Shown: positions 258-24,383 of the stretch, in pieces
How positions within the stretch are numbered: the stretch's first letter is position 1
Layout: each line of letters starts with the position of its first letter
Virus record (IMG/VR): IMGVR_UViG_2706794695_000002
Source: a virus
Taxonomy: Duplodnaviria; Heunggongvirae; Uroviricota; Caudoviricetes
Length of the DNA stretch: 25,215 nt
Direction: 5' to 3' (one strand)
Made by a program: the position numbers and the translations under genes
Notes under the pieces: generated by a model
What the model was told of the DNA's origin: nothing
Database searches by the model: none
Seen by the model: the letters and a program-made list of their open reading frames with translations, nothing else

Positions 258-668
258 TTAGTGCGGAAATATTTGTGTAGTGTTCTGTATGTTCTCAGTA
301 AAGAGTAATGAATTATCAAAGGTATAGTAATACCTTTTGTTTTCGTGGATATTTGTAATCCATCTGAAAACCCCTGCTGTAGCAAGATTTTTCCTGTATT
401 CGTAAAATGATAACTCTCCTGATTTGAATCCTTTTAAGGTGGCTTCTATAAGGCATTTATTTTTTGAAAATCTTACATTTACAACCTTACCCTGTCCTTT
501 TATTAAAACCGTATTATCGTTTTCAAGAACAAGATGAATATTCTCTGTGGCTAAATAGTAAATGTAATGTGAGACATTGTGACGTTTTAGTTCAGAATAA
601 AACCAGTGATAGTTTAAATTATTTCGCACTTTATCGAATATTTGTTTAAAAATGGCAACCTGAGCCAT
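258..668 (-). CDS. Conserved phage protein of unknown function (resembles the lambda right-end ORF and E. coli prophage ybcV-type DUF1398 proteins, as recalled)
   Basis: Track ORF 258..683 (-). The in-frame ATG at 666-668 ([11 protein letters not shown]...) has a GGAAGG Shine-Dalgarno about 9 nt upstream on the minus strand, so it is preferred over the ATG at 681-683, which lies inside that SD. The gene sits in visibly AT-rich DNA (about 27% G+C in a hand-counted 60-nt line). Homology is from memory only. Confidence 0.6.
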
Positions 669-725
669 TGTAGTACCTTCCATGTGATATGAGGGGGCGT
701 AGTCTGCACGATTATCTAAATTGCT

Positions 726-959
726 TCAATCTGGTCTAACCTGTTTTCTGAGCAATTCAGTAATGTCACTCTTTTCTTTGTTTGCTTCAGGCGAAACTCT
801 TTTTTCTGAGCACAGTCTCCGGCGGCAGGCTTCAATGACCCAGGCTGAGAAATTCCCGGACCCTTTTTGAACAAGAGCGATGTTAATTTGTTCAATCATT
901 TGGTTAGGAAAGCGGATGTTGCGGGTTGTTGTTCTGCGGGTTCTGTTCTTCGTTGACAT
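726..959 (-). CDS. Small Arc/MetJ-type ribbon-helix-helix DNA-binding protein (resembles prophage ylcI-type proteins, as recalled)
   Basis: Track ORF, 77 aa. After a basic N-terminus (MSTKNRTRRTTTRNIRFP) comes a segment matching the RHH pattern: a beta-strand (NIRFPNQMIEQI), helix A, a G-S-G-N-F-S turn like the GRSVNSEI turn of P22 Arc, and helix B (AWVIEACRRRL). It lies 57 bp upstream of the 258..668 gene on the same strand. The SD is weak. Confidence 0.5.
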   Translation of the reverse strand: MSTKNRTRRTTTRNIRFPNQMIEQINIALVQKGSGNFSAWVIEACRRRLCSEKRVSPEANKEKSDITELLRKQVRPD

Positions 960-1139
960 GAGGTTGCCCTGTATTCAGTGTCGCTGATTTGTATTGTCTG
1001 AAGTTGTTTTTACGTTAAGTTGATGCAGATCAATTAATACGATACCTGCGTCATAATTGATTATTTGACGTGGTTTGATGGCGTAGATGCACGTTGTGAC
1101 ATGTAGATGATAATTATTATCATTTTGCGGGTCCTTTCC

Positions 1140-1325
1140 GGCGATCCGACAGGTTACGGGGCGGAAGGCGCGCGGGTTTTCGCTATTTATGACAATTTTC
1201 CGGTTTAAGGCGTTTCCGTTCTTCTTCGCCGTAACCTAATGTTTTTATTTAAAACACCCCCTGAAAAGAAAGGAAACGACAGGTGCTGAAAACGGGCTTT
1301 TTGGCCTCTGTCGTTTCCTTTCTCT
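1140..1325. promoter_or_regulatory. cos DNA-packaging site: cosN nick region (1159-1170) with cosB terminase-binding repeats R3, R2, R1 and the cosQ side upstream
   Basis: The flanks match lambda cos as I recall it (...CCGACAGGTTACG / 12-nt core / CGCGGGTTTTCGCTATTTATGA...). CGTTTCC at 1211-1217 (R3), the inverted GGAAACG at 1272-1278 (R2) and CGTTTCC at 1312-1318 (R1) are in the expected positions, with an AT-rich IHF-like segment between R3 and R2. nu1 starts immediately downstream. Confidence 0.85.
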
Positions 1326-1347
1326 GTTTTTGTCCGTGGAATGAACA

Positions 1348-1867
1348 ATGGAAGTCAACAAAAAGCAGCTGGCTGACATTTTCGGTGCGAGTATCCGTAC
1401 CATTCAGAACTGGCAGGAACAGGGAATGCCCGTTCTGCGAGGCGGTGGCAAGGGTAATGAGGTGCTTTATGACTCTGCCGCCGTTATAAGATGGTATGCC
1501 GAAAGGGATGCTGAAATTGAGAACGAAAAGCTGCGCCGGGAAGTTGAAGAACTGCGGCAGGCCAGCGAGACAGATCTCCAGCCAGGGACTATTGAGTACG
1601 AACGCCATCGACTTACGCGTGCGCAGGCCGACGCACAGGAGCTGAAAAATGCCAGAGACTCCGCTGAAGTGGTGGAAACCGCATTCTGTACTTTCGTGCT
1701 GTCGCGGATCGCAGGTGAAATTGCCAGTATTCTCGACGGGATCCCCCTGTCGGTGCAGCGGCGTTTTCCGGAACTGGAAAACCGACATGTTGATTTCCTG
1801 AAACGGGATATCATCAAAGCCATGAACAAAGCAGCCGCGCTGGATGAACTGATACCGGGGTTGCTGA

Positions 1868-1893
<26 letters not shown>
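1348..1893 (+). CDS. nu1: Terminase small subunit
   Basis: Track ORF, 181 aa (MEVNKKQLADIFGASIRTIQNWQEQGMPVL...), essentially identical to lambda gpNu1 as recalled. It lies directly downstream of cosB and its 3' end overlaps the start of A. Confidence 0.97.
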
Positions 1894-5574
<3,681 letters not shown>

Positions 5575-5594
<20 letters not shown>

Positions 5595-6894
5595 TCTCCC
5601 GCATATTGCCAGCATGGCTTTTAATGAGCCGCTGATGCTTGAACCCGCCTATGCGCGGGTTTTCTTTTGTGCGCTTGCAGGCCAGCTTGGGATCAGCTGC
5701 CTGACGGATGCAGTATCCGGCGACAGCCTGACTGCCGGAGAGGCACCCGCGGCGCTGGCGTTATCCGGTGATGATGACGGACCACGACAGGCCCGCAGTT
5801 ATCAGGTAATGAACGGCATCGCCGTGCTGCCGGTGTCCGGCACGCTGGTCAGCCGGACGCGGGCGCTGCAGCCGTACTCGGGGATGACCGGTTACAACGG
5901 CATTATCGCCCGTCTGCAACAGGCTGCCAGCGACCCGATGGTGGACGGCATTCTGCTCGATATGGACACACCGGGCGGAATGGTGGCGGGAGCATTTGAC
6001 TGCGCTGACATCATCGCCCGTGTGCGTGACATAAAGCCGGTATGGGCGCTGGCCAATGACATGAACTGCAGCGCAGGTCAGCTGCTTGCCAGTGCCGCCT
6101 CCCGGCGTCTGGTCACGCAGACCGCCCGGACAGGCTCCATCGGCGTCATGATGGCTCACAGTAATTACGGCGCTGCACTGGAGAAACAGGGCGTGGAAAT
6201 CACGCTGATTTACAGCGGCAGCCATAAGGTGGATGGCAACCCCTACAGCCATCTACCGGATGATGTCCGGGAAACATTGCAGTCCCGGATGGATGCAACC
6301 CGCCGGATGTTTGCACAGAAGGTGTCGGCATATACCGGCCTGTCCGTGCAGGCTGTGCTGGATACCGAGGCTGCAGTGTACAGCGGTCAGGAGGCCATTG
6401 ATGCCGGACTGGCTGATGAACTTGTTAACAGTACCGATGCGATCACCGTCATGCGTGATGCACTGGATGCACGTAAATCCCGTCTCTCAGGAGGGCGAAT
6501 GACCAAAGAGACTCAATCAACAACTGTTTCAGCCACTGCTTCGCAGGCTGACGTTACTGGCGTGGTGCAAGCGACGGAGGGCGAGAACGCCAGCGCGGCG
6601 CAGCCGGACGTGAACGCGCAGATCACCGCAGCGGTTGCGGCAGAAAACAGTCGCATTATGGGGATCCTCAACTGTGAGGAGGCTCACGGACGCGAAGAAC
6701 AGGCACGCGTGCTGGCCGAAACCCCCGGTATGACCGTGGAAACGGCCCGCCGTATTCTGGCCGCAGCACCACAGAGTGCACAGACGCGCAGTGACACTGC
6801 GCTGGATCGTCTGATGCAGGGGGCACCGGCACCGCTGGCTGCAGGTAACCCGGCATCTGATGCCGTTAACGATTTGCTGAACACACCAGTGTAA
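5575..6894 (+). CDS. C: Capsid assembly protease C
   Basis: The track ORF 5440..6894 overlaps B by about 150 nt. The GTG at 5575-5577 gives MTAELRNLPHIASMAFNEPLML..., which matches the lambda gpC N-terminus as recalled (439 aa). Confidence 0.9.
6289..6894 (+). CDS. nu3: Scaffolding protein Nu3 (in-frame internal start within C)
   Basis: In-frame ATG at 6289-6291 (MDATRRMFAQKV...) shares the stop of C, at the offset expected for lambda nu3. Supported by synteny and established lambda biology, not by an independent sequence signal. Confidence 0.65.
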   Translation: MDATRRMFAQKVSAYTGLSVQAVLDTEAAVYSGQEAIDAGLADELVNSTDAITVMRDALDARKSRLSGGRMTKETQSTTVSATASQADVTGVVQATEGENASAAQPDVNAQITAAVAAENSRIMGILNCEEAHGREEQARVLAETPGMTVETARRILAAAPQSAQTRSDTALDRLMQGAPAPLAAGNPASDAVNDLLNTPV

Positions 6895-6903
6895 GGGATG
6901 TTT

Positions 6904-7236
6904 ATGACGAGCAAAGAAACCTTTACCCATTACCAGCCGCTGGGCAATAGTGACCCGGCTCATACCGCAACCGCGCCCGGCGGATTGAGTGCGAAAGCGC
7001 CTGCAATGACCCCGCTGATGCTGGACACCTCCACCCGTAAGCTGGTTGCGTGGGATGGCACCACCGACGGTGCTGCCGTTGGCATTCTTGCGGTTGCTGC
7101 TGACCAGACCAGCACCACACTGACGTTCTACAAGTCCGGCACGTTCCGTTATGAGGATGTGCTCTGGCCGGAGGCTGCCAGCGACGAGACGAAAAAACGG
7201 ACCGTGTTTGCCGGAACGGCAATCAGCATCGTTTAA
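6904..7236 (+). CDS. D: Capsid decoration protein D
   Basis: Translation from 6904 is [27 protein letters not shown]..., matching lambda gpD as recalled. The track ORF starts two codons earlier at 6898 (MFM...), so either start is possible. Confidence 0.95.
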
Positions 7237-7291
7237 CTTTACCCTTCATCACTAAAGGCCGCCTGTGTGGCTTTTTTTACGGGATTTTTTT

Positions 7292-8317
7292 ATGTCGATG
7301 TACACAACCGCCCAGCTGCTGGCGGCAAATGAGCAGAAATTTAAGTTTGATCCGCTGTTTCTGCGTCTCTTTTTCCGTGAGAGCTATCCCTTCACTACGG
7401 AGAAAGTCTATCTCTCACAAATTCCGGGACTGGTAAACATGGCGCTGTACGTTTCGCCGATTGTTTCCGGTGAGGTTATCCGTTCCCGTGGCGGCTCCAC
7501 CTCTGAATTTACGCCGGGATATGTCAAACCCAAGCATGAGGTGAATCCGCAGATGACCCTGCGTCGCCTGCCGGATGAAGATCCGCAGAATCTGGCGGAC
7601 CCGGCTTACCGCCGCCGTCGCATCATCATGCAGAACATGCGTGACGAAGAGCTGGCCATTGCTCAGGTCGAAGAGATGCAGGCAGTTTCTGCCGTGCTCA
7701 AGGGCAAATACACCATGACCGGTGAAGCCTTCGATCCGGTTGAGGTGGATATGGGCCGCAGTGCGGCGAACAACATCACACAGTCCGGCGTCACGGAGTG
7801 GAGCAAGCGTGACAAGTCCACGTATGACCCGACCGACGATATCGAAGCCTACGCGCTGAACGCCAGCGGTGTGGTGAATATCATCGTGTTTGACCCGAAA
7901 GGCTGGGCGCTGTTCCGTTCCTTCAAAGCCGTCAAGGAGAAGCTGGATACCCGTCGCGGCTCTCATTCCGAGCTGGAGACAGCGGTAAAAGACCTGGGCA
8001 AAGCGGTGTCCTATAAGGGAATGTATGGCGATGTGGCCATCGTCGTGTATTCCGGACAGTACGTGGAAAACGGCGTCAAAAAGAACTTCCTGCCGGACAA
8101 CACGATGGTGCTGGGGAACACTCAGGCTCGCGGTCTGCGCACCTATGGCTGCATTCAGGATGCGGACGCACAGCGCGAAGGCATTAACGCTTCTGCCCGT
8201 TACCCGAAAAACTGGGTGACCACCGGCGATCCGGCGCGTGAGTTCACCATGATTCAGTCAGCACCGCTGATGCTGCTGGCTGATCCTGATGAGTTCGTGT
8301 CCGTTCAACTGGCGTAA
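7292..8317 (+). CDS. E: Major capsid protein E
   Basis: The ATG at 7292 gives MSMYTTAQLLAANEQKFKFDPLF..., 341 aa, matching lambda gpE as recalled. The track ORF extends upstream to 7265. Confidence 0.97.
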   Translation: MSMYTTAQLLAANEQKFKFDPLFLRLFFRESYPFTTEKVYLSQIPGLVNMALYVSPIVSGEVIRSRGGSTSEFTPGYVKPKHEVNPQMTLRRLPDEDPQNLADPAYRRRRIIMQNMRDEELAIAQVEEMQAVSAVLKGKYTMTGEAFDPVEVDMGRSAANNITQSGVTEWSKRDKSTYDPTDDIEAYALNASGVVNIIVFDPKGWALFRSFKAVKEKLDTRRGSHSELETAVKDLGKAVSYKGMYGDVAIVVYSGQYVENGVKKNFLPDNTMVLGNTQARGLRTYGCIQDADAQREGINASARYPKNWVTTGDPAREFTMIQSAPLMLLADPDEFVSVQLA

Positions 8318-8318
8318 T

Positions 8319-8342
8319 CATGGCCCTTCGGGGCCATTTTCT
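8319..8342 (+). terminator. Stem-loop with UUCG tetraloop followed by a T-run, in the E-FI intergenic region (possible attenuator or RNA-stability element)
   Basis: ATGGCCC-TTCG-GGGCCAT is a perfect 7-bp stem, followed by TTTTCTCTCT. Late transcription must continue through it into FI and beyond, so it is unlikely to be an efficient terminator. Confidence 0.45.
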
Positions 8343-8358
8343 CTCTGTGGAGGAGTTC

Positions 8359-8757
8359 ATGACGAAAGATGAACTGATTGCCCGTCTTCAGGAGCTGGGT
8401 GAGCAATTGAACCGCGATGTCAGTTTGACGGGAACGAAAGAAGAACTGGCGCTTCGTGTGGCAGAGCTGGAAGAAGAGCTTGATGACACGGATGAAACTG
8501 CCGGTCAGGACACCCCTCTCAGCCGGGAAAATGTGCTGACCGGGCATGAAAATGAGGTGGTATCAGCGCAGCCGGATACCGTGATTCAGGATACGGCTGA
8601 ACTGGTCACGGTCGTGGCACTGGTGACGCTGCATACTGATGCACTTCACGCCACGCGGGATAAACCTGTGGCATTTGTGCTGCCGGGAACGGCGTTTCGT
8701 GTCTCTGCCGGTGTGGCAGCCGAAATGACAGAGCGCGGCCTGGCCAGAATGCAATAA
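8359..8757 (+). CDS. FI: DNA packaging protein FI
   Basis: The ATG at 8359, preceded by GGAGG, gives MTKDELIARLQELGEQLNRDVSLTG..., 132 aa, matching lambda gpFI as recalled with a few substitutions. Confidence 0.9.
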   Translation: MTKDELIARLQELGEQLNRDVSLTGTKEELALRVAELEEELDDTDETAGQDTPLSRENVLTGHENEVVSAQPDTVIQDTAELVTVVALVTLHTDALHATRDKPVAFVLPGTAFRVSAGVAAEMTERGLARMQ

Positions 8758-8768
8758 CGGGAGGCGCT

Positions 8769-9122
8769 GTGGCTGATTTCGATAACCTGTTCGATGCTGC
8801 CATTGCCCGCGCCGATGAAACGATACGCGGGTACATGGGAACGTCAGCCACCATGACATCCGGTGAGCAGTCAGGTGCGGTGATACGTGGTGTTTTTGAT
8901 GACCCTGAAAATATCAGCTATGCCGGACAGGGCGTGCGCGTTGAAGGCTCCAGCCCGTCCCTGTTTGTCCGGACTGATGAGGTGCGGCAGCTGCGGCGTG
9001 GAGACACGCTGACCATCGGTGAGGAAAATTTCTGGGTAGATCGGGTTTCGCCGGATGATGGCGGAAGTTGTCATCTCTGGCTTGGACGGGGCGTACCGCC
9101 TGCCGTTAACCGTCGCCGCTGA
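8769..9122 (+). CDS. FII: Head-tail joining protein FII
   Basis: 117-aa track ORF at the position and length of lambda gpFII. Confidence 0.93.
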   Translation: MADFDNLFDAAIARADETIRGYMGTSATMTSGEQSGAVIRGVFDDPENISYAGQGVRVEGSSPSLFVRTDEVRQLRRGDTLTIGEENFWVDRVSPDDGGSCHLWLGRGVPPAVNRRR

Positions 9123-9133
9123 AAGGGGGATGT

Positions 9134-9712
9134 ATGGCCATAAAAGGTCTTGAGCAGGCCGTTGAAAACCTCAGCCGTATCAGCAAAACGGCGGTGCCCG
9201 GTGCCGCCGCAATGGCCATTAACCGCGTTGCTTCATCCGCGATATCGCAGTCTGCGTCACAGGTTGCCCGTGAGACAAAGGTACGCCGGAAACTGGTAAA
9301 GGAAAGGGCCAGGCTGAAAAGGGCCACGGTCAAAAATCCGCAGGCCAGAATCAAAGTTAACCGGGGGGATTTGCCCGTAATCAAGCTGGGTAATGCGCGG
9401 GTTGTCCTGTCCCGCCGCAGGCGTCATAAAAAGGGGCAGCGTTCATCCCTGAAAGGTGGCGGCAGCGTGCTTGTGGTGGGTAACCGTCGTATTCCCGGCG
9501 CGTTTATTCAGCAACTGAAAAACGGCCGGTGGCATGTTATGCAGCGTGTGGCCGGGAAAAACCGTTACCCCATTGATGTGGTGAAAATCCCGATGGCGGT
9601 GCCGCTGACCACGGCGTTTAAACAGAATATTGAACGGATACGGCGTGAACGTCTTCCGAAAGAGCTGGGCTATGCGCTGCAGCATCAACTGAGAATGGTA
9701 ATAAAGCGATGA
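9134..9712 (+). CDS. Z: Tail completion protein Z
   Basis: 192-aa track ORF at the position and length of lambda gpZ. Its stop overlaps the start of U. Confidence 0.93.
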   Translation: MAIKGLEQAVENLSRISKTAVPGAAAMAINRVASSAISQSASQVARETKVRRKLVKERARLKRATVKNPQARIKVNRGDLPVIKLGNARVVLSRRRRHKKGQRSSLKGGGSVLVVGNRRIPGAFIQQLKNGRWHVMQRVAGKNRYPIDVVKIPMAVPLTTAFKQNIERIRRERLPKELGYALQHQLRMVIKR

Positions 9713-10104
9713 AACATACTGAACTCCGTGCAGCCGTACTGGATGCACTGGAGAAGCATGACACCGGGGCGACGCTTTTTGATGGTCGCCCCGCTGTTTT
9801 TGATGAGGAAGATTTTCCGGCAATTGCCGTTTATCTCACCGGCGCTGAATACACGGGCGAAGAGCTGGACAGCGATACCTGGCAGGCGGAGCTGCATATT
9901 GAAGTTTTCCTGCCTGCTCAGGTGCCGGATTCAGAGCTGGATTCGTGGATGGAGTCCCGGATTTATCCTGTGATGAGCGATATCCCGGCACTGTCAGATT
10001 TGATCACCAGTATGGTGGCCAGCGGCTATGACTACCGGCGCGACGATGATGCGGGCCTGTGGAGTTCAGCCGATCTGACTTATGTCATTATCTATGAAAT
10101 GTGA
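9709..10104 (+). CDS. U: Tail terminator protein U
   Basis: 131-aa track ORF at the position and length of lambda gpU. Confidence 0.93.
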
Positions 10105-10111
10105 GGACGCT

Positions 10112-10852
10112 ATGCCTGTACCAAATCCTACAATGCCGGTGAAAGGTGCCGGGACCACCCTGTGGGTTTATAAGGGGAGCGGTGACCCTTATGCGAACCC
10201 GCTTTCAGACGTTGACTGGTCGCGTCTGGCAAAAGTTAAAGACCTGACGCCCGGCGAACTGACCGCTGAGTCCTATGACGACAGCTATCTCGATGATGAA
10301 GATGCAGACTGGACTGCGACCGGGCAGGGGCAGAAATCTGCCGGAGATACCAGCTTCACGCTGGCGTGGATGCCCGGAGAGCAGGGGCAGCAGGCGCTGC
10401 TGGCGTGGTTTAATGAAGGTGATACCCGTGCCTATAAAATCCGCTTCCCGAACGGCACGGTCGATGTGTTCCGTGGCTGGGTCAGCAGTATCGGTAAGGC
10501 GGTGACGGCGAAGGAGGTGATTACCCGCACGGTGAAGGTCACCAATGTGGGACGTCCGTCGATGGCAGAAGATCGCAGCACGGTGACGGCGACGACCGGC
10601 ATGACGGTGACACCCGCCAGTGCTTCCGTAGTGAAAGGGCAGAGCACCACGCTGACCGTGGCATTCCAGCCGGATGGCGCAACCGACAAGAGCTTCCGTG
10701 CGGTGTCTGCGGATAAAACAAAAGCCACCGTGTCGGTCAGTGGTATGACCATCACCGTGAAAGGTGTTGCTGCAGGCAAGGTCAACATTCCGGTCGTATC
10801 TGGTAATGGTGAGTTTGCTGCGGTTGCAGAAATCAACGTCACCGCCAGTTAA
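10112..10852 (+). CDS. V: Major tail tube protein V (with C-terminal Ig-like domain)
   Basis: The ATG at 10112, preceded by GAGGAC, gives [22 protein letters not shown]..., 246 aa, matching lambda gpV as recalled. The track ORF begins 10 codons upstream. Confidence 0.95.
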
Positions 10853-10867
10853 TCCGGAGAGTCAGCG

Positions 10868-11290
10868 ATGTTCCTGAAAACCGAATCATTTGAACATAAC
10901 GGTGTGACCGTCACGCTTTCTGAACTGTCAGCCCTGCAGCGTATTGAGCATCTCGACCTGATGAAACGGCAGGCAGAACAGGCGGAGTCAGACAGCAACC
11001 GGAAGTTTACTGTGGAAGACGCCATCAGAACCGGCGCTTTTGTGGTTGCGATGTCCCTGTGGCATAACCATCCGAAGAAGACGCAGATGCCGTCCATGAA
11101 TGAAGCCGTTAAACAGATTGAGCAGGAAGTGCTTACCACCTGGCCCACAGAGGCAATTTCTCATGCTGAAAACGTGGTGTACCGGCTGTCCGGTATGTAT
11201 GAGTTTGTGGTGAATGATGCTCCTGAACAGGCAGAGGACGCCGGGCCTGCAGAGCCTGTTTCTGCGGGAAAGTGTTCGACGGTGAGCTGA
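10868..11290 (+). CDS. G: Tail assembly chaperone G
   Basis: 140-aa track ORF at the position and length of lambda gpG. Confidence 0.93.
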   Translation: MFLKTESFEHNGVTVTLSELSALQRIEHLDLMKRQAEQAESDSNRKFTVEDAIRTGAFVVAMSLWHNHPKKTQMPSMNEAVKQIEQEVLTTWPTEAISHAENVVYRLSGMYEFVVNDAPEQAEDAGPAEPVSAGKCSTVS

Positions 11291-11706
11291 GTTTTGCCCT
11301 GAAACTGGCGCGTGAGATGGGGCGACCCGACTGGCGCGCCATGCTTGCCGGGATGTCATCCACGGAGTATGCCGACTGGCACCGCTTTTACAGTACCCAT
11401 TATTTTCATGATGTTCTGCTGGATATGCACTTTTCCGGGCTGACGTACACCGTGCTCAGCCTGTTTTTCAGCGATCCGGAGATGCATCCGCTGGATTTCA
11501 GTCTGCTGAACCGGCGCGAGGCTGACGAAGAGCCTGAAGATGATGTGCTGATGCAGAAAGCGGCAGGGCTTGCCGGAGGTGTCCGCTTTGGCCCGGACGG
11601 GAATGAAGTTATCCCCGCTTCCCCGGATGTGGCGGACATGACGGAGGATGACGTAATGCTGATGACAGTATCAGAAGGGATCGCAGGAGGAGTCCGGTAT
11701 GGCTGA
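10868..11706 (+). CDS. Tail assembly chaperone G-T, made by programmed -1 ribosomal frameshift
   Basis: The slippery heptamer GGGAAAG at 11266-11272 lies near the 3' end of G. The -1 frame (track ORF 11272..11706) stays open to 11706 and overlaps the start of H. This is the established lambda G/GT mechanism. Confidence 0.8.
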
Positions 11707-14260
11707 ACCGGTAGGCGATCTGGTCGTTGATTTGAGTCTGGATGCGGCCAGATTTGACGAGCAGATGGCCAGAGTCAGGCGTCATTTTTCCGGTACGGAA
11801 AGTGATGCGAAAAAAACAGCGGCAGTCGTTGAACAGTCGCTGAGCCGACAGGCGCTGGCTGCACAGAAAGCGGGGATTTCCGTCGGGCAGTATAAAGCCG
11901 CCATGCGTATGCTGCCTGCACAGTTCACCGACGTGGCCACGCAGCTTGCAGGGGGGCAGAATCCCTGGCTGATCCTGCTGCAACAGGGTGGTCAGGTTAA
12001 GGACTCCTTCGGCGGGATGATCCCCATGTTCAGGGGGCTTGCCGGCGCGATCACCCTGCCGATGGTGGGGGCCACCTCGCTGGCGGTGGCGACCGGTGCG
12101 CTGGCGTATGCCTGGTATCAGGGCAACTCAACCCTGTCCGATTTCAACAAAACGCTGGTCCTTTCCGGTAATCAGGCGGGACTGACGGCAGATCGTATGC
12201 TGGTCCTGTCCAGAGCCGGGCAGGCGGCAGGGCTGACGTTTAACCAGACCAGCGAGTCACTCAGCGCACTGGTTAAGGCGGGGGTAAGCGGTGAGGCTCA
12301 GATTGCGTCCATCAGCCAGAGTGTGGCGCGTTTCTCCTATGCATCCGGCGTGGAGGTGGACAAGGTCGCTGAAGCCTTCGGGAAGCTGACCACAGACCCG
12401 ACGTCGGGGCTGACGGCGATGGCACGCCAGTTCCATAACGTGACGGCGGAGCAGATTGCGTATGTTGCTCAGTTGCAGCGTTCCGGCGATGAAGCCGGGG
12501 CATTGCAGGCGGCGAACGAGGCCGCAACGAAAGGGTTTGATGACCAGACCCGCCGCCTGAAAGAGAACATGGGCACGCTGGAGACCTGGGCAGACAGGAC
12601 TGCACGTGCATTCAAATCCATGTGGGATGCGGTGCTGGATATTGGTCGTCCTGATACCGCGCAGGAGATGCTGATTAAGGCAGAGGCTGCGTTTAAGAAA
12701 GCAGACGACATCTGGAATCTGCGCAAGGATGATTATTTCGTTAACGATGAAGCACGGGCGCGTTACTGGGATGATCGTGAAAAAAAACGCCTGGAGCGGG
12801 ATGCAGCCCAAAAGAGGGTAGATCAACAGCGTCAACAGGACAAAAATGCGCAGCAGCAGAGCGATACCGAAGCGTCACGGCTGAAATATACCGAAGAGGC
12901 GCAGAAGGCTTACGAACGGCTGCAGACGCCGCTGGAGAAATATACCGCCCGTCAGGAAGAACTGAACAAGGCACTGAAAGACGGAAAAATCCTGCAGGCA
13001 GATTACAACACGCTGATGGCGGCGGCGAAAAAGGATTATGAAGCGACGCTGAAAAAGCCGAAACAGTCCGGCGTGAAGGTGTATGCGGGCGATCGTCAGG
13101 AAGACAGTGCTCATGCGGCCCTGCTGACGCTTCAGGCAGAACTCCGGACGCTGGAGAAGCATGCCGGAGCGAATGAGAAAATCAGCCAGCAGCGCCGGGA
13201 TTTGTGGAAGGCAGAAAGTCAGTTCGCGGTACTGGAGGAGGCGGCACAACGTCGCCAGCTGTCCGCACAGGAGAAATCCCTGCTGGCGCATAAAGACGAG
13301 ACGCTGGAGTACAAACGCCAGCTGGCTGCACTTGGTGACAAGGTTACGTATCAGGAGCACCTGAATGCGCTGGCGCAGCAGGCGGATAAATTCGCACAGC
13401 AGCAACGGGCAAAACGGGCAGCCATTGATGCGAAAAACCGGGGGCTGACTGACCGGCAGGCAGCGCGGGAAGCCACGGAACAGCGCCTGAAGGAACAGTA
13501 TGGCGATAATCCTCTGGCGCTGAATAACGTCATGTCAGAGCAGAAAAAGACCTGGGCGGCTGAAGACCAGCTTCGCGGGAGCTGGATGGCAGGCCTGAAG
13601 TCCGGCTGGAGTGAGTGGGAAGAGAGCGCCACGGACAGTATGTCACAGGTTAAAAGTGCAGCCACGCAGACCTTTGATGGTATTGCACAGAATATGGCGG
13701 CGATGCTGACCGGCAGTGAACAGAACTGGCGCAGCTTCACCCGCTCCGTGCTGTCCATGATGACAGAAATTCTGCTTAAGCAGGCAATGGTGGGGATTGT
13801 CGGGAGTATCGGCAGCGCCATTGGCGGGGCTGTTGGTGGCGGCGCATCCGCGTCAGGTGGTACAGCCATTCAGGCCGCTGCGGTGAAATTCCATTTTGCA
13901 ACCGGGGGATTTACGGGAACCGGCGGCAAATATGAGCCAGCGGGGATTGTTCACCGTGGTGAATTTGTCTTCACGAAGGAGGCAACCAGCCGGATTGGCG
14001 TGGGGAATCTCTACCGGCTGATGCGCGGCTATGCGGAAGGTGGTTATGTGGGCGGTGCCGGAAGTCCGGCGCAGATGCGGCGGGCTGAAGGCATTAATTT
14101 TAATCAGAACAATCACGTGGTGATTCAGAACGACGGTACGAATGGTCTGCCAGGTCCACAGATGATGAAGGCCGTGTATGACATGGCCCGCAAGGGTGCC
14201 CGTGATGAAATTCAGACACAGATGCGTGATGGTGGCCTGTTCTCCGGAGGTGGACGATGA
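11699..14260 (+). CDS. H: Tail tape measure protein H
   Basis: 853-aa track ORF, the same length as lambda gpH, with the usual Ala/Gln/Lys-rich helical middle and Gly-rich C-terminal part. Confidence 0.97.
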   Translation: MAEPVGDLVVDLSLDAARFDEQMARVRRHFSGTESDAKKTAAVVEQSLSRQALAAQKAGISVGQYKAAMRMLPAQFTDVATQLAGGQNPWLILLQQGGQVKDSFGGMIPMFRGLAGAITLPMVGATSLAVATGALAYAWYQGNSTLSDFNKTLVLSGNQAGLTADRMLVLSRAGQAAGLTFNQTSESLSALVKAGVSGEAQIASISQSVARFSYASGVEVDKVAEAFGKLTTDPTSGLTAMARQFHNVTAEQIAYVAQLQRSGDEAGALQAANEAATKGFDDQTRRLKENMGTLETWADRTARAFKSMWDAVLDIGRPDTAQEMLIKAEAAFKKADDIWNLRKDDYFVNDEARARYWDDREKKRLERDAAQKRVDQQRQQDKNAQQQSDTEASRLKYTEEAQKAYERLQTPLEKYTARQEELNKALKDGKILQADYNTLMAAAKKDYEATLKKPKQSGVKVYAGDRQEDSAHAALLTLQAELRTLEKHAGANEKISQQRRDLWKAESQFAVLEEAAQRRQLSAQEKSLLAHKDETLEYKRQLAALGDKVTYQEHLNALAQQADKFAQQQRAKRAAIDAKNRGLTDRQAAREATEQRLKEQYGDNPLALNNVMSEQKKTWAAEDQLRGSWMAGLKSGWSEWEESATDSMSQVKSAATQTFDGIAQNMAAMLTGSEQNWRSFTRSVLSMMTEILLKQAMVGIVGSIGSAIGGAVGGGASASGGTAIQAAAVKFHFATGGFTGTGGKYEPAGIVHRGEFVFTKEATSRIGVGNLYRLMRGYAEGGYVGGAGSPAQMRRAEGINFNQNNHVVIQNDGTNGLPGPQMMKAVYDMARKGARDEIQTQMRDGGLFSGGGR

Positions 14261-15289: not shown

Positions 15290-15718
15290 ATGACAGAGAC
15301 AGAATCAGCGATTCTGGCGCACGCCCGGCGATGTGCTCCAGCGGAGTCGTGCGGCTTCGTGGTAAGAACGCCGGAGGGGGAAAGATATTTCCCCTGCGTG
15401 AATATCTCCGGTGAGCCGGAGGCGTATTTCCGTATGTCGCCGGAAGACTGGCTGCAGGCAGAGATGCAGGGTGAGATTGTGGCACTGGTCCACAGCCACC
15501 CCGGTGGTCTGCCCTGGCTGAGTGAGGCCGACCGGCGGCTGCAGGTGCAGAGTGATTTGCCGTGGTGGCTGGTCTGCCGGGGGGCGATTCACAAGTTCCG
15601 CTGTGTGCCACATCTTACCGGGCGGCGCTTTGAGCACGGGGTGACGGACTGTTACACGCTGTTCCGGGATGCTTACCATCTGGCGGGGATTGAGATGCCG
15701 GATTTTCATCGTGAGGAT
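15290..15718 (+). CDS. K: Tail tip assembly protein K (JAB/MPN plus NlpC/P60 type), 3' end lost in the N run
   Basis: MTETESAILAHARRCAPAESCGFVV... contains the JAMM-like EIVALVHSHPGG motif. The reading frame runs into the N run that starts at 15719. The classical lambda K start corresponds to the internal ATG near 15434; the upstream start at 15290 is used because it includes the conserved ESCG segment. Confidence 0.85.
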
Positions 15719-15789
15719 NNNNNNNNNNNNNNNNNNNNNNNNNNNNNNNNNNNNNNNNNNNNNNNNNNNNNNNNNNNNNNNNNNNNNNN
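15719..15789. other. Run of 71 N (assembly gap or masked bases) covering the K 3' end and I 5' end
   Basis: Literal n characters in the sequence. The track ORF 15290..16270 is an artifact of translating through the N run. Confidence 0.99.
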
Positions 15790-16270
15790 TGCCGGGCAGG
15801 ATGTTAGCACGTCCGGATTAACGGCACAGTTACATGAGGCTCTGCCTGACGGCGCTGTGATTCATATTGTTCCCAGAGTCGCCGGGGCCAAGTCAGGTGG
15901 TGTATTCCAGATTGTCCTGGGAGCAGCCGCCATTGCCGGATCATTCTTTACCGCCGGAGCCACCCTTGCAGCATGGGGGGCTGCCATTGGTGCCGGTGGT
16001 ATGACCGGCATTCTGTTTTCTCTCGGTGCCAGTATGGTGCTCGGCGGTGTGGCTCAGATGCTGGCACCGAAAGCCAGAACTCCCCGCACACAGACAACGG
16101 ATAACGGTAAGCAGAACACCTATTTCTCCTCACTGGATAACATGGTTGCCCAGGGCAATGTTATGCCTGTTCTGTATGGTGAAATGCGCGTGGGGTCACG
16201 TGTGGTATCTCAGGAGATCAGCACGGCAGACGAAGGGGACGGTGGTCAGGTTGTGGTGATTGGTCGCTGA
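15790..16270 (+). CDS. I: Tail tip assembly protein I, 5' end lost in the N run
   Basis: The sequence after the gap (AGQDVSTSGLTAQLHEALPDGAVIHIVPRVAGAKSGGVFQIVLGAAAIAG...VVVIGR) matches the C-terminal two-thirds of lambda gpI as recalled. The stop is at 16268-16270. Confidence 0.85.
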
Positions 16271-16330: not shown

Positions 16331-19300
16331 ATGGGTAAAGGCAGCAGTAAGGGGCATACCCCGCGCGAAGCGAAGGACAACCTGAAGTCCACGCAGCTGC
16401 TGAGTGTGATCGATGCCATCAGCGAAGGGCCGGTTGAAGGTCCGGTGGATGGATTAAAAAGCGTGCTGCTGAACAGTACGCCGGTGCTGGACAGTGAGGG
16501 GAATACCAACATCTCCGGCGTCACGGTGGTGTTCCGGGCAGGTGAGCAGGAGCAGTCACCGCCGGAGGGATTTGAATCCTCCGGCTCCGAGACGGTGCTG
16601 GGTACGGAAGTGAAATATGACACGCCGATCACCCGGACCATCACGTCGGCAAACATTGACCGACTGCGTTTTACCTTCGGTGTACAGGCACTGGTGGAAA
16701 CCACCTCAAAGGGAGACAGGAATCCGTCTGAAGTTCGCCTGCTGGTTCAGATACAGCGTAACGGTGGCTGGGTGACGGAAAAAGACATCACCATTAAGGG
16801 CAAAACCACCTCGCAGTATCTGGCCTCGGTGGTGGTGGATAACCTGCCGCCGCGCCCGTTTAATATCCGGATGCGCAGAATGACGCCGGACAGCACCACA
16901 GACCAGCTGCAGAACAAAACGCTCTGGTCGTCATACACCGAAATCATCGATGTGAAACAGTGCTACCCGAACACGGCACTGGTCGGCGTACAGGTGGATT
17001 CGGAGCAGTTCGGCAGCCAGCAGGTGAGCCGTAATTATCATCTTCGCGGGCGCATTCTGCAGGTGCCGTCGAACTATAATCCGCAGACGCGGCAATACAG
17101 CGGTATCTGGGACGGAACGTTAAAACCGGCATACAGCAACAACATGGCCTGGTGTCTGTGGGATATGCTGACCCATCCGCGCTATGGCATGGGGAAACGT
17201 CTTGGTGCGGCAGATGTGGATAAATGGGCGCTGTATGTCATCGGCCAGTACTGTGACCAGTCGGTGCCGGACGGCTTTGGCAGCACGGAGCCGCGCATCA
17301 CCTGTAATGCCTGGCTGACCACACAGCGCAAGGCGTGGGATGTGCTCAGTGATTTCTGCTCGGCGATGCGCTGTATGCCGGTATGGAACGGGCAGACGCT
17401 GACGTTCGTGCAGGACCGACAGTCGGATAAGGTGTGGGCCTATAACCGCAGTAATGTGGTGATGCCGGATGATGGCGCGCCGTTCCGCTACAGTTTCAGC
17501 GCCCTGAAAGACCGCCATAATGCCGTTGAGGTGAACTGGATTGACCCGGATAACGGCTGGGAGACGGCGACAGAGCTTGTGGAGGATACGCAGGCCATTG
17601 TCCGTTACGGTCGTAACGTCACGAAGATGGATGCCTTTGGCTGTACCAGCCGGGGGCAGGCACACCGCGCCGGGCTGTGGCTGATTAAAACGGAACTGCT
17701 GGAGACGCAGACCGTGGATTTCAGCGTGGGTGCTGAAGGGCTTCGTCATGTACCGGGCGATGTCATTGAAATCTGCGATGATGACTATGCCGGTATCCGC
17801 ACCGGCGGGCGCGTGCTGGCGGTGAACAGCCAGACCCGGACGCTGACGCTCGACCGTGAAATCACGCTGCCATCCTCCGGCACCACGCTGATAAGCCTGG
17901 TTGACGGGCAGGGGAATCCGGTCAGCGTGGAGGTCCAGTCCGTCACCGACGGCGTGAAGGTAAAAGTGAGCCGTGTTCCTGACGGTGTTGCTGAATACAG
18001 CGTGTGGGGGCTGAAGCTGCCGACGCTGCACCAGCGATTGTTCCGCTGCGTGAGTATCCGTGAGAACGACGACGGCACGTATGCCATCACCGCCGTGCAG
18101 CATGTGCCGGAAAAAGAAGCCATCGTGGATAACGGGGCGCACTTTGACGGCGACCAGAGCGGCACGGTGAATGGTGTCACGCCGCCAGCGGTGCAGCACC
18201 TGACTGCCGAAGTCACCGCAGACAGCGGGGAATATCAGGTGCTGGCGCGCTGGGACACGCCGAAGGTGGTGAAGGGCGTGAGCTTCCTGCTCCGTCTGAC
18301 CGTAACAGCGGATGACGGCAGTGAGCGGCTGGTCAGCACGGCCCGGACGACGGAAACCACTTACCGCTTCACACAACTGGCGCTGGGGAACTACAGGCTG
18401 ACAGTCCGGGCAGTAAATGCGTGGGGGCAGCAGGGCGATCCGGCGTCGGTATCGTTCCGGATTGCCGCACCGGCAGCGCTGTCGCGGATTGAGCTGACGC
18501 CGGGCTATTTTCAGATAACCGCCACGCCGCATCTTGCGGTTTATGATCCGACGGTACAGTTTGAGTTCTGGTTCTCGGAAAAGCGGATTGCGGATATCAG
18601 GCAGGTTGAAACCACAGCACGCTATCTTGGCACGGCGCTGTACTGGATAGCCGCCAGTATCAATATCAAACCGGGCCATGATTATTACTTTTATATCCGC
18701 AGTGTGAACACCGTTGGCAAATCGGCATTCGTGGAGGCTGTTGGTCAGCCGAGTGATGATGCATCCGGTTATCTGGATTTTTTCAAAGGCGAGATAGGGA
18801 AAACCCATCTGGCTCAGGAGCTGTGGACGCAGATTGATAACGGTCAGCTTGCGCCTGACCTGGCTGAAATCAGGACGTCCATTACGGATGTCAGCAATGA
18901 AATCACGCAGACCGTCAATAAGAAACTGGAAGACCAGAGTGCGGCAATTCAGCAGATACAGAAGGTTCAGGTTGATACAAATAATAACCTGAACAGCATG
19001 TGGGCTGTGAAGCTGCAGCAGATGCAGGACGGACGCCTTTATATCGCGGGTATTGGTGCCGGTATTGAGAACACCCCTGACGGCATGCAGAGTCAGGTGC
19101 TGCTGGCGGCGGACAGGATTGCGATGGTTAATCCTGCGAATGGCAACACAAAACCGATGTTTGTTGGTCAGGGCGATCAGATATTCATGAACGACGTGTT
19201 CCTGAAACGCCTGACGGCCCCCACCATTACCAGCGGTGGAAATCCATCGGCATTTTCCCTGACTCCGGACGGAAAGCTGACCGCTAAAAATGCGGATATC

Positions 19301-19828
19301 AGTGGCAGTGTGAATGCGAACGCCGGGACGCTCAACAATGTCACGGTAAATGAAAACTGTACGATTAAGGGCATGCTGGAGGCGACTCAGGTCAGAGGTG
19401 ACTTCGTTAAAGCTGTATCCAAATCATTTCCGAAACAGGCTGGTACGTGGGGTAACACGGAAACACCAAACGGGACGGTTACAGTCACCATAAGCGATGA
19501 TCATAACTTTGACCGCCAGATTATTATTCCGCCCATTATTTTTAACGGTATAGCGTATGACGATCCGGGGAGCGGAAATAACCCAGGAGGCACGCGATAC
19601 ACGGGTTATGGTTTTGAAGTTCGCAAAAACGGCGTATTAATCGCATCCAGAGAAACTAAAGGGGCCATTCCCGGTAGTTACAGTGCAGTTATTGATATGC
19701 CTAGTGGTGGTGGTAGCGTCACTCTGGAGTTTAAGATTTTCCAGAAAGGCAATCAGGGGGCAGGCAATATCACCGACTGTACGGTGATTGTGACCAAAAA
19801 AGCGGCTTCCGGCATCAGTATTCGTTGA
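16331..19828 (+). CDS. J: Central tail fibre / host-specificity protein J, with a C-terminal receptor-binding region that differs from lambda
   Basis: 1165-aa track ORF. The N-terminal ~1000 aa match lambda gpJ as recalled; the last ~150 aa differ and the protein is about 33 aa longer than lambda J. Confidence 0.95.
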
Positions 19829-19898: not shown

Positions 19899-20498
19899 AT
19901 GCGTAAAGTTTGTGCAGCCATTTTGTCCGCAGCCATTTGCCTGGCCGTATCCGGTGCGCCTGCATGGGCGTCTGAACATCAGTCCACGCTGAGCGCGGGG
20001 TATCTTCATGCCCGGACCAACGTTCCCGGCAGTGATGATCTGAACGGGATTAACGTGAAATACCGTTATGAGTTTACGGATACGCTGGGGCTGGTGACGT
20101 CATTCAGCTATGCAGGAGACAAGAATCGCCAGCTGACCCGTTACAGCGATACCCGCTGGCATGAAGATTCCGTTCGTAACCGCTGGTTCAGCGTAATGGC
20201 GGGGCCGTCTGTGCGCGTGAATGAATGGTTCAGCGCGTATGCGATGGCGGGTGTGGCTTACAGCCGTGTGTCGACTTTTTCCGGGGATTATATCCGCGTA
20301 ACTGACAATAAGGGGAAAACGCACGATGTGCTGACCGGAAGTGATGACGGTCGCCACAGCAACACGTCTCTGGCGTGGGGAGCTGGCGTGCAGTTTAACC
20401 CGACCGAATCCGTGGCCATTGATATTGCTTATGAAGGCTCCGGCAGTGGCGACTGGCGCACTGACGGTTTCATCGTGGGTGTCGGTTATAAATTCTGA
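19899..20498 (+). CDS. lom: Outer-membrane beta-barrel protein Lom (Ail/OmpX/PagC family), a moron gene
   Basis: 199-aa track ORF with a signal peptide (MRKVCAAILSAAICLAVSGAPAWA). The conserved barrel segments INVKYRYE and DIAYEGSGSGDWRTDGFIVGVGYKF match lambda Lom as recalled. The RBS is GAGAGG. It sits between two terminators in the lambda lom position. Confidence 0.9.
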   Translation: MRKVCAAILSAAICLAVSGAPAWASEHQSTLSAGYLHARTNVPGSDDLNGINVKYRYEFTDTLGLVTSFSYAGDKNRQLTRYSDTRWHEDSVRNRWFSVMAGPSVRVNEWFSAYAMAGVAYSRVSTFSGDYIRVTDNKGKTHDVLTGSDDGRHSNTSLAWGAGVQFNPTESVAIDIAYEGSGSGDWRTDGFIVGVGYKF

Positions 20499-20556: not shown

Positions 20557-23500
20557 GTGAATATGGCAGTAAAGATTTCAGGTGTACTGAAAGACGGCAC
20601 AGGAAAACCGGTACAGAACTGCACAATCCAGCTGAAAGCAAAACGTAACAGCACCACGGTGGTGGTGAACACGCTGGCCTCAGAAAATCCGGATGAAGCC
20701 GGGCGTTACAGCATGGACGTTGAGTACGGTCAGTACAGCGTTATTCTGTTGGTGGAAGGATTCCCGCCGTCACATGCCGGGACCATCACCGTGTATGAAG
20801 ATTCCCGACCCGGTACGCTGAATGATTTTCTCGGTGCCATGACGGAGGATGATGCCCGTCCGGAGGCACTGCGCCGTTTTGAGCTGATGGTGGAAGAGGT
20901 GGCGCGTAACGCGTCCGCGGTGGCACAGAACACGGCAGCCGCGAAGAAATCAGCCAGCGATGCCAGCACATCAGCCCGTGAGGCGGCAACCCATGCGACT
21001 GATGCTGCAGATTCAGCACGTGCAGCCAGCACGTCAGCCGGACAGGCCGCTTCGTCGGCTCAGTCAGCGTCTTCCAGCGCAGGAACGGCATCAACAAAGG
21101 CCACTGAAGCCTCAAAAAGTGCTGCCGCTGCAGAGTCCTCAAAAAGCGCGGCGGCTACCAGTGCCGGTGCGGCGAAAACGTTAGAAACGAATGCGGCAGC
21201 GTCACAACAATCAGCAGCCACTTCTGCATCCACCGCGACCACGAAAGCGTCAGAAGCTGCCACCTCAGCCCGGGATGCGTCGGCTTCAAAAGAGGCGGCA
21301 AAATCATCAGAAACGAACGCATCATCAAGCGCCAGTAGCGCAGCTTCCTCGGCGACGGCGGCTGCAAATTCTGCGAAGGCGGCCAAAACGTCCGAGACGA
21401 ACGCCAGGTCTTCTGAAACGGCAGCGGGACAGAGTGCCTCAGCTGCGGCAGGCTCAAAAACAGCGGCTGCGTCGTCTGCCAGCGCCGCGTCAACAAGTGC
21501 CGGGCAGGCCTCAGCCAGTGCCACCGCCGCCGGAAAATCGGCAGAAAGCGCCGCATCATCCGCTTCAACAGCCACAACGAAGGCTGGCGAAGCCACTGAG
21601 CAGGCCACGGCAGCAGCGAGGTCAGCTTCCGCAGCGAAGACATCCGAAACGAACGCGAAAGCGTCGGAAACCCGTGCAGAATCCTCAAAAACGGCTGCCG
21701 CATCGTCCGCCAGTTCGGCGGCGTCATCGGCATCATCGGCGTCTGCTTCAAAAGATGAGGCGACCAGACAGGCGTCAGCAGCGAAGGGCAGCGCCACGAC
21801 GGCATCCACGAAGGCGACAGAGGCTGCTGGTAGTGCGACGGCAGCAGCTNNNNNNNNNNNNNNNNNNNNNNNNNNNNNNNNNNNNNNNNNNNNNNNNNNN
21901 NNNNNNNNNNNNNNNNNNNNNNNNNNNNNNNNNNNNNNNNNNNNNNNNNNNNNNNNNNNNNNNNNNNNNNNNNNNNNNNNNNNNNNNNNNNNNNNNNNNN
22001 NNNNNNNNNNNNNNNNNNNNNNNNNNNNNNNNNNNNNNNNNNNNNNNNNNNNNNNNNNNNNNNNNNNNNNNNNNNNNNNNNNNNNNNNNNNNNNNNNNNN
22101 NNNNNNNNNNNNNNNNNNNNNNNNNNNNNNNNNNNNNNNNNNNNNNNNNNNNNNNNNNNNNNNNNNNNNNNNNNNNNNNNNNNNNNNNNNNNNNNNNNNN
22201 NNNNNNNNNNNNNNNNNNNNNNNNNNNNNNNNNNNNNNNNNNNNNNNNNNNNNNNNNNNNNNNNNCAGCGCGACCAACAGCACGTCTGAAACGCTGGCGG
22301 CAACGCCAAAGGCAGTAAAAGCAGCCAATGACAATGCTGAGAAACGTCTGCAGAAAGATCAGAACGGTGCGGATATCCCTGGCAAAGACACCTTTACGAA
22401 AAATATTGGTGCCTGCCGTGCCTTCGGTGGGTCAGTAAGCACAACAACAGGAAACTGGACGACTGCACAGTTTATCGAGTGGCTGGATTCTCAGGGAGCA
22501 TTTAACCATCCATACTGGATGTGCAAGGGTTCCTGGTCTTATGGCAATAATAAAATCATTACTGATACTGGCTGCGGTAATATTCATCTCGCCGGAGCTG
22601 TCATTGAAGTAATGGGGATAAAGTCAGCGATGACGATCCGCATTACCACTCCGACCACATCCAGCGGTGGCGGAACAACCAACGCCCAGTTTACCTATAT
22701 TAATCACGGAACAGATTATTCACCTGGCTGGCGAAGGGACTATAACTCCAGAAATAAGCCAACGGCATCAGAGATCGGGGCGCTACCGTCAGGTGGAACA
22801 GCAGTATCATCAGTTAATCTGGCTTCAAAAGGTCGGGTAGCCGCGCTGACAGACAATACGCAGGGGGCAGCAGGTCTTGAGTTATACGAGGTGTATAACA
22901 ACGGATATCCAACAGCGTATGGAAATATCATTCACCTGAAAGGGATGACAGCCGTTGGCGAAGGTGAGTTACTCATCGGCTGGAGTGGTACAAGCGGTGC
23001 TCATGCTCCGGCATTTATTCGTTCACGACGGGATACGACCGACGCAAACTGGTCGCCGTGGGCGCAGCTTTACACCTCGGCTCATCCTCCTGCAGAGTTT
23101 TATCCAGTCGGTGCACCAATCCCGTGGCCATCAGATACCGTTCCGTCTGGTTATGCCCTGATGCAGGGGCAGACTTTTGACAAATCTGCTTACCCGAAAC
23201 TTGCAGCCGCTTATCCGTCAGGCGTGATCCCTGATATGCGTGGCTGGACGATTAAGGGCAAGCCCGCCAGTGGTCGTGCCGTATTGTCTCAGGAACAGGA
23301 TGGCATTAAATCGCACACCCACAGCGCCAGCGCATCCAGTACGGATTTGGGGACGAAAACCACATCGTCGTTTGATTACGGCACTAAATCCACGAATAAC
23401 ACCGGGGCGCATACGCACAGTCTGAGCGGCTCTACAAGTTCAGCTGGGGCCCACCAACATAGTCAGACTGGGCCCAGAACGAATAGCGGGAGTCAACCTA

Positions 23501-23802
23501 CTGGAATGTTTCCGGCAGGGAGTACTCAAGTTAGCGGGACTAATCAGGTTGGTATCAGTGGCTCATTAACCAGTGGCACCTCCCAATGGGTAGGTAAATC
23601 ATCTTCAGAAGGAAACCATACACACTCACTGTCCGGCACAGCAGCATCTGCGGGTGCACACGCGCATACTGTCGGTATTGGTGCTCATACGCACTCTGTT
23701 GCGATTGGTTCACATGGACACACCATCACCGTTAACGCTGCTGGTAACGCGGAAAACACCGTCAAAAACATCGCATTTAACTATATTGTGAGGCTCGCAT
23801 AA
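20557..23802 (+). CDS. stf: Side tail fibre protein Stf (apparently one uninterrupted frame; interior interrupted by an N run)
   Basis: Track ORF. The N-terminal part has a long Ala/Ser/Thr-rich repeat shaft (repeated ...AAKTSETNA...-type units). The C-terminal part has His-x-His repeats (GAHTHS, GAHQHS, GNHTHS, GAHAHT, GAHTHS, GSHGHT) and ends ...[11 protein letters not shown], as in lambda Stf and T4 gp37-type fibres as recalled. The true length is unknown because of the gap. Confidence 0.9.
21850..22265. other. Run of 416 N inside the stf repeat region (assembly gap)
   Basis: Literal n characters. The surrounding sequence is highly repetitive Ala/Ser/Thr-coding DNA, which typically collapses in short-read assembly. 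Confidence 0.99.
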
Positions 23803-24383
23803 TGGCATTCAGAATGAGTGAACAAGCACGGACCATAAAAATTTATAACCTGCTGGCCGGAACTAATGAATTTATTGGTGAAGGTGACGCATATATTCCG
23901 CCTCATACAGGTCTGCCTGCAAACAGTACCGATATTGCACCGCCAGATATTCCGGCTGGTTTCGTGGCTGTTTTCAACAGTGATGAGTCATCGTGGCATC
24001 TCGTTGAAGATCATCGGGGTAAAACGGTTTATGACGTGGCTTCCGGCGACGCGTTATTTATTTCTGAACTCGGCTCATTACCGGAAAATGTCACCTGGTT
24101 ATCCCCGGAAGGGGAGTTTCAGAAGTGGAACGGCACAGCCTGGGTGAAGGATACGGAAGCAGAAAAACTGTTCCGGATCCGGGAGGCGGAAGAAACAAAA
24201 AACAGCCTGATGCAGGTAGCCAGTGAGCATATAGCGCCGCTTCAGGATGCTGTGGATCTGGAGATCGCAACGGAGAAAGAAACCTTGTTGCTGGAAGCTT
24301 GGAAAAAGTATCGGGTGTTGCTGAACCGTGTTGATACATCAACTGCACCGGATATTGAATGGCCAGTAGCACCTATAGGGTAA
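23802..24383 (+). CDS. tfa: Tail fibre assembly protein Tfa
   Basis: 193-aa track ORF ([44 protein letters not shown]...) matching lambda Tfa as recalled. Its start overlaps the stf stop (TAATG). Confidence 0.95.

Follow-up and report, generated by a model that had tools for sequence, protein, structure and literature searches.

A minority natural cosN allele in a probably functional lambda-type cos site

Does a lambda-type cos site still work when most of one half of its cohesive-end core (cosN) departs from that of lambda? The question is raised by a 25,215-nt stretch of tailed-phage DNA (Caudoviricetes; IMG/VR record IMGVR_UViG_2706794695_000002), the whole of which is called the window below. 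An earlier note, made from the letters alone, had described the core at 1159-1170 as carrying six contiguous changes in its right half relative to lambda, and had proposed as a check an alignment to lambda itself. It offered three explanations: different cohesive ends, a defective site in a locked-in prophage, or an assembly error. The departure from lambda is real, as GGGCGGAAGGCG lies at this place between lambda-type flanks, and the alignment, run here against NC_001416, showed that the lambda core was given correctly in the note as GGGCGGCGACCT. The most likely explanation is that the core is a natural version of cosN, widespread though not the usual one, in a working site, and so an ordinary finding. 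From the sequence comparisons described here we consider it highly probable that this is a functional lambda-type cos site with a minority natural cosN allele. Of the three explanations offered earlier, the evidence thus favors different cohesive ends, the ends themselves being predicted.

The cos site and late region of the window

Read directly, the core at 1159-1170 is flanked by ...CAGGTTACG on its left and by CGCGGGTTTTCGC... on its right (...GATCCGACAGGTTACG on the 5' side and CGCGGGTTTTCGCTATTTATGA... on the 3' side when the flanks are taken further out). A total of 660 bases around cos were aligned with lambda NC_001416, the right end of lambda being joined to its left end. The left half of the core (GGGCGG, 1159-1164, + strand) is the same in both, whereas the right half (1165-1170, + strand) reads AAGGCG in the window and CGACCT in lambda. 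Cohesive-end positions 7, 8, 9, 10 and 12 are changed while both sequences have C at position 11, so the changes were correctly assigned to the right half but affect five of its six positions and are not contiguous. The remainder of the alignment, outside the core, has 22 differing columns out of 649 (3.4%). With this background, the probability of at least five differences in six positions is 2.6e-7 at one given place and about 1.7e-4 over all positions of the alignment, and the changes in the core are therefore not chance scatter. Inversion of the six bases was considered as their origin and rejected, since the reverse complement of CGACCT is AGGTCG and not AAGGCG. Reasoned by hand, the inversion route is no more parsimonious because extra substitutions would still be required.

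The window shares with lambda cosQ, the left half of cosN, the CG pairs at the nick sites, the three R sequences and the spacing between cosN and R3; it differs from lambda in an R2-R1 spacer that is 1 bp shorter, in minor spacer substitutions and in a lower symmetry of cosN. The conserved 5'-CG-3' is found around both nick positions, as in lambda (cosN with 2 bp on each side, CG-GGGCGGAAGGCG-CG, 1157-1172, + strand; ACG/GGG... and ...GCG/CGC, the slash marking the nick). These CG pairs and the 7-bp cosQ are reported to be highly conserved (PMC4669245). Twofold symmetry over the 16-bp site holds for 8 of 16 positions in the window against 10 of 16 in lambda, and what is left of it still includes the CG flanks and the G2:C11 pair. 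The GC content of the 12-mer (10 of 12) is the same as in lambda. The packaging-termination signal cosQ (GGGTCCT, 1129-1135, + strand) lies 30 bp upstream of cohesive-end base 1, and in the alignment both its sequence and its offset are those of lambda, where cosQ lies at 48473-48479. A second small cluster of substitutions is found upstream of cosQ in non-coding DNA, at 1083-1089 (lambda -76 to -70), where CTCCACG of lambda is replaced by GTAGATG with four changes in seven positions.

On the other side of cosN, the critical TerS binding site R3 (AAGGCGTTTCCGTTCTTCTTCG, 1207-1228, + strand) is identical to lambda bp 49-70, lambda R3 itself being bp 50-65 (PMC9026076), and it stands at the same distance from cosN as in lambda. 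The R3-R2 spacer (1229-1261, + strand) has five substitutions and by homology contains the IHF site I1, which sits between R3 and R2 (PMC4669245). R2 is an inverted R sequence (1262-1281, - strand; GAAAAGAAAGGAAACGACAG on the + strand) identical to that of lambda, with an approximate extent based on the 16-bp sequence that R2 and R1 share (PMC9026076). After an R2-R1 spacer (1282-1306) with one substitution and the 1-bp deletion, R1 (CTGTCGTTTCCTTTCTCTG, 1307-1325, + strand) is again identical to lambda. The complex cosB order R3-I1-R2-R1 and the critical cosN-R3 spacing are both present, with IHF binding at I1 as a prediction. Smaller differences had been noted earlier in the IHF-bend segment between R2 and R1; they do exist, but this placement was only partly correct, as five of them sit between R3 and R2.

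Several of the differences recur in other phages. Those at lambda bp 73, 102 and 134 and the 1-bp deletion are common to phage 2H10, which has a canonical cosN, and to PhiR46_1 and YDC107_1, which carry the variant core. The spacer difference at bp 97 is also found in these phages bar one, the four differences shared with 2H10 not including it, and that at bp 71 recurs only in the variant carriers PhiR46_1 and YDC107_1. Compared with the same three phages, the differences at bp 35 (A in lambda, C in the window) and bp 78 are the window's own.

Measured against the canonical GGGCGGCGACCT, 5 of the 12 core bases differ, and the differences are confined to bp 7-12, with bp 1-6, the CG flanks and cosQ conserved. 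The site has every testable defining feature of a lambda-like cos and lacks only identity with the canonical 12-mer.

The two terminase genes follow directly. Nu1 (TerS, 181 aa; 1348-1893, + strand) is 98.3% identical to lambda Nu1, and A (TerL, 641 aa, the endonuclease that nicks cosN; 1868-3793, + strand) is 99.4% identical to lambda gpA, which bears out the earlier impression of a lambda-like terminase. The window contains the complete set of lambda morphogenesis genes from W to J together with stf and tfa, and the products from Nu1 through J, with those of stf and tfa, match lambda at 70-100% amino acid identity without frameshifts or stops. K, I and stf are interrupted by runs of N only. 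These runs, at 15719-15789 (71 bases) and 21850-22265 (416 bases), indicate a draft-quality assembly and have no biological meaning, being either masked sequence or gaps left in scaffolding. The first stands in place of about 403 bp of K/I sequence. The K-I fusion open reading frame that results (15290-16270, 326 aa) was considered as a sign of a prophage defect and rejected, as it is an artefact of the N run and not a deletion. The second lies inside the stf open reading frame (20557-23802, 1081 aa).

Some features of the late region set it apart from lambda. The stf gene is full length, unlike the frameshifted stf of laboratory lambda, J (16331-19828) is 82% identical to lambda J overall, and the gene in the Lom position (19899-20498) is only 46% identical to lambda Lom and so represents a different allele of the Ail/Lom family. 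The differences in Lom, J and stf look like host-range module differences. Right after tfa (23802-24383), the segment from about 24400 to 25215 matches the IS1A family at more than 99% identity. The junction between tfa and IS1 is common to 285 complete E. coli genomes, and the end of the contig in IS1 is probably a typical draft assembly break.

Distribution of the variant core

In every scan of a sequence collection, GGGCGG and some of the flanking bases were kept fixed. When the six variable positions could take any base, IMG/VR gave at least 120 loci, and the 121 sites among the matches listed comprised 119 canonical cores, one CGACCG and one AAGGCG; as the canonical IMG/VR count is a lower bound, allele frequencies from IMG/VR are not comparable. 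The exact variant was found in 29 IMG/VR contigs with the window's own left flank, in 80 with any left flank and the right flank CGCGGGTTTTC, and in 86 once the right flank was freed as well. One of these collection contigs (L132) is 100% identical to window positions 258-14014 and is probably the same assembly. At least 13 different left-flank contexts occur among the variant contigs, nearly all of them retaining GGGTCC(T) at the cosQ offset, and an identical 45-nt left flank was seen with both alleles. AAGGCG was by far the commonest non-canonical allele in the IMG/VR scans, with 80 contigs, no other exceeding 4. The rarer right-half alleles in the same scans were CAGGCG, CAGACG, AGACCT, TGACCT, GAGCGT, CGACCG, AAGGCT, AAGCGT and CTGACG, among which CAGGCG and AAGGCT are each one step from AAGGCG.

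Frequencies were taken from complete E. coli genomes (n=5,426), using exact 37-mer queries, each unable to seed on the other allele. Identity bands from 55- and 70-nt BLAST queries were confounded by partial matches and were not used for allele counts. The variant is present in 155 of the 5,426 genomes, at 166 places, and the canonical allele in 4,101 genomes, at 7,413 places, which gives the variant a share of about 2.2% of the lambda-type cos sites. The earlier note had foreseen that the core might prove common among lambdoid phages; it does recur, as a minority allele. The variant was also found in two GenBank phage records, in metagenome-derived IMG/VR contigs and in an Escherichia sp. genome. 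A scan of species-representative genomes returned one match only, Escherichia sp. E1V33, and in that scan the allele with this right flank was not found outside Escherichia.

Typing by cos bp 45-70 and the N-terminus of Nu1 was carried out on the IMG/VR loci (L001-L229), and three cosB/TerS types were found to carry the variant. One is the lambda type. The second has the R3 region GGGAAAATCATGTCGGTACTTCTCGA and presumably resembles phage 21, and a third cosB type, GGGACTGGTGGTGGTTTTGTTGTTCG, was additionally found with the variant. Both alleles occur with the lambda-type R3 and Nu1 and also with the second type. Since each allele is found with more than one cosB/Nu1 type, the cosN allele and the packaging specificity assort independently.

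Among named elements, the exact 12-mer is carried by the Escherichia phages PhiR46_1 (PV340565) and YDC107_1 (CP025712) and by the plasmid pAH01-1 (NZ_CP055252). As in the window, their cosB, Nu1 and A are of lambda type, and in their lambda-type head and tail module the K-I-J region is about 96-97% identical to the window at the nucleotide level. All three are N15-like linear plasmid prophages of 46-47 kb, with telL/telR or a protelomerase, ParAB/SopAB and a 4-kb RepA-primase, and their flank on the cosQ side differs from that of the window. In the window itself, only lambda-like DNA on the upstream side of cos and the late region are represented. PhiR46_1 appears in a strain table as an isolated temperate phage (PMC13190303), and the main text of the same paper reports plaquing (EOP) assays on a temperate-phage panel from the same source. 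None of the GenBank phage records found here starts at the variant cos, that of PhiR46_1 being deposited from telL to telR.

The variant is strongly enriched on plasmid records, to which 16 of the 166 variant places belong compared with 19 of the 7,413 canonical ones (41-fold; odds ratio 41, Fisher p = 4e-18). The plasmid-record elements that were inspected, pAH01-1 and the extrachromosomal YDC107_1, are both N15-like plasmid prophages with lambda-type heads and tails.

Terminase, cleavage and rival explanations

The earlier note held that nicking by terminase depends on this core. For the changed part of the core, published work reports otherwise: TerS sitting on R3 holds TerL in place, and changes at bp 7-12 therefore have very little effect (PMC4669245, drawing on Xu & Feiss 1991 and Hang et al. 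2001). The mutation C11G has no phenotype, while the symmetric G2C costs 10-fold (Xu & Feiss 1991, via PMC4669245), and this functional asymmetry of the cosN halves requires cosB close by (Hang, Catalano & Feiss 2001, via PMC4669245). Differences at bp 7-12 are described as "common" in lambda-like phages, in which natural variation is concentrated in that half, and lambda TerL gave equal yields and bursts with cosN-lambda and cosN-N15, showing no cosN specificity between the two (PMC4669245).

Several natural variants can be set beside the core of the window. The cosN of N15 and phiD326, GGGCGGCGTCCG, varies in the right half only and has G at bp 12, like the window; the N15 end was confirmed here. 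It has two changes (bp 9 and 12) as against five in the window (PMC4669245). N15 is also unlike the window in its simple cosB with a single R3 and in a terminase about 65% identical to that of lambda, and in experiments lambda TerL cut its cosN with no drop in yield (PMC4669245). The cosN of Gifsy-1 differs at bp 8, 9 and 11 and keeps GGGCGG, as the window does (PMC4669245), and mEp213 and LLS, with GGGCGGCGCGCT (PMC12315714), again vary in the right half and retain GGGCGG. These three have two to three changes, none of them at bp 7, and head genes distant from those of lambda, whereas the allele of the window lies within a module otherwise about 97% identical to lambda. Variation of the right half has thus already been published, and the variant of the window is the most divergent instance found here. 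None of the published cosN mutants and natural variants compared alters five positions together, including bp 7 and 8 adjoining the symmetry centre. A search of the full-text literature for the 12-mer matched only an unrelated Ginkgo paper, sequences printed in figures escaping such searches. The AAGGCG allele was not found described in the literature, and the cosN survey of Vahanian et al. 2017 (Virology 509:140) may tabulate it.

By homology to lambda, Nu1 dimers would bind R3, R2 and R1 of cosB across an IHF bend, and the bound TerS would anchor gpA for a nick in the bottom strand between bp 12 and 13 (1170/1171). A second TerL would nick the top strand just 5' of bp 1 (1158/1159), both positions being placed by homology (PMC9026076). 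The changed half adjoins cosB, and there the placing of TerL by TerS makes nicking insensitive to sequence. All five changes fall in bp 7-12, where TerS positions TerL, and for this reason an ordinary lambda-type terminase should cut the variant; that it would do so with full efficiency is extrapolated from variants changed at one to three positions. Virion DNA is predicted to carry 12-nt 5' overhangs, 5'-GGGCGGAAGGCG at the left end and 5'-CGCCTTCCGCCC at the right end, which would be perfectly complementary to each other since both come from one duplex site. The variant ends match the canonical lambda end at 7 of 12 positions only and should anneal poorly with it.

Five simultaneous changes exceed any tested mutant, and the earlier note had expected TerL to read the core and its symmetry. 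The site could then be functional only with a co-adapted terminase, as a distinct cosN specificity class in which a TerL variant recognises AAGGCG. We regard this as very unlikely. We compared gpA from 38 variant and 38 canonical loci and Nu1 from 39 variant and 47 canonical loci. The gpA proteins are as similar between the allele groups (mean identity 99.0%) as within them (99.0% and 99.1%), five gpA and four Nu1 sequences occur in 100% identical form with either allele, and no allele-discriminating residue was found in gpA or Nu1 across these loci. The N-terminal 40 aa of the window's Nu1, recognition helix included, have the form seen most often next to either allele, and the variant loci include Nu1 proteins down to 77% mutual identity. 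The gpA of the window is itself nearly that of lambda (the 99.4% given above), whose TerL does not distinguish lambda cosN from N15 cosN (PMC4669245). As identical TerL and TerS flank both alleles and no residue separates them, there is no need for terminase co-adaptation.

Another explanation, raised in the earlier note, is a decayed, non-cleavable cos in a locked-in defective prophage. The allele is rare, at about 2.2% of the lambda-type sites in complete E. coli genomes, its symmetry is down to 8 of 16 bp, and it lies here in a draft contig with IS1 just after tfa, in a prophage that may not be competent. Decay, however, would scatter mutations, whereas about 86 IMG/VR contigs and 155 genomes have one and the same 12-mer, across many flank contexts and three cosB types, and the functionally critical parts of the site are unaltered. 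Intact terminase genes are in fact more frequent beside the variant: among loci whose sequence runs on for at least 2.7 kb downstream of cos, a full-length 181-aa Nu1 together with a 641-aa gpA was found at 38 of 45 variant loci and at 36 of 64 canonical loci. The allele is, moreover, carried by the isolated temperate phage PhiR46_1. The persistence of one exact 12-mer across diverse flanks and cosB/TerS types argues for a functional site, and we give decay little credence. That the six bases arose through an error of sequencing or assembly, as the draft quality marked by the two N runs and the terminal IS1 might suggest, is refuted by the identical sequence in 155 independently finished E. 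coli genomes and two GenBank phage records, in metagenome-derived IMG/VR contigs and in an Escherichia sp. genome.

Cohesive-end compatibility and annotation

Lambda-type phages that are otherwise nearly identical might fall into two cohesive-end compatibility groups, with the AAGGCG allele marking the second, an idea that we advance tentatively and think rather improbable. If it were true, a chromosome cut between a canonical and a variant cos, in a mixed concatemer or in tandem prophages, would have ends matched at 7 of 12 positions and would cyclise poorly; a mismatch of two bases between the ends already costs about 4-fold (PMC4669245). There would then be a partial barrier to productive recombination with co-resident canonical-cos prophages, or to packaging across them, and the allele might persist by frequency-dependent selection. 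Its place as the most abundant non-canonical allele and its enrichment on plasmids would agree with an old allele that is spreading horizontally, as opposed to drift.

In cloning, variant DNA mixed with lambda arms, as in cosmid work or in vitro packaging, would give non-annealing ends. Annotation pipelines based on GGGCGGCGACCT miss the genome ends of about 2% of the lambda-type prophages of E. coli and 16 of the 35 lambda-type cos sites on E. coli plasmid records, where the two elements inspected are lambda/N15 hybrid phage-plasmids. The core of the window, altered at five of six positions, is the most extreme natural case found here of a rule already published, by which terminase does not read the half of cosN nearest cosB.
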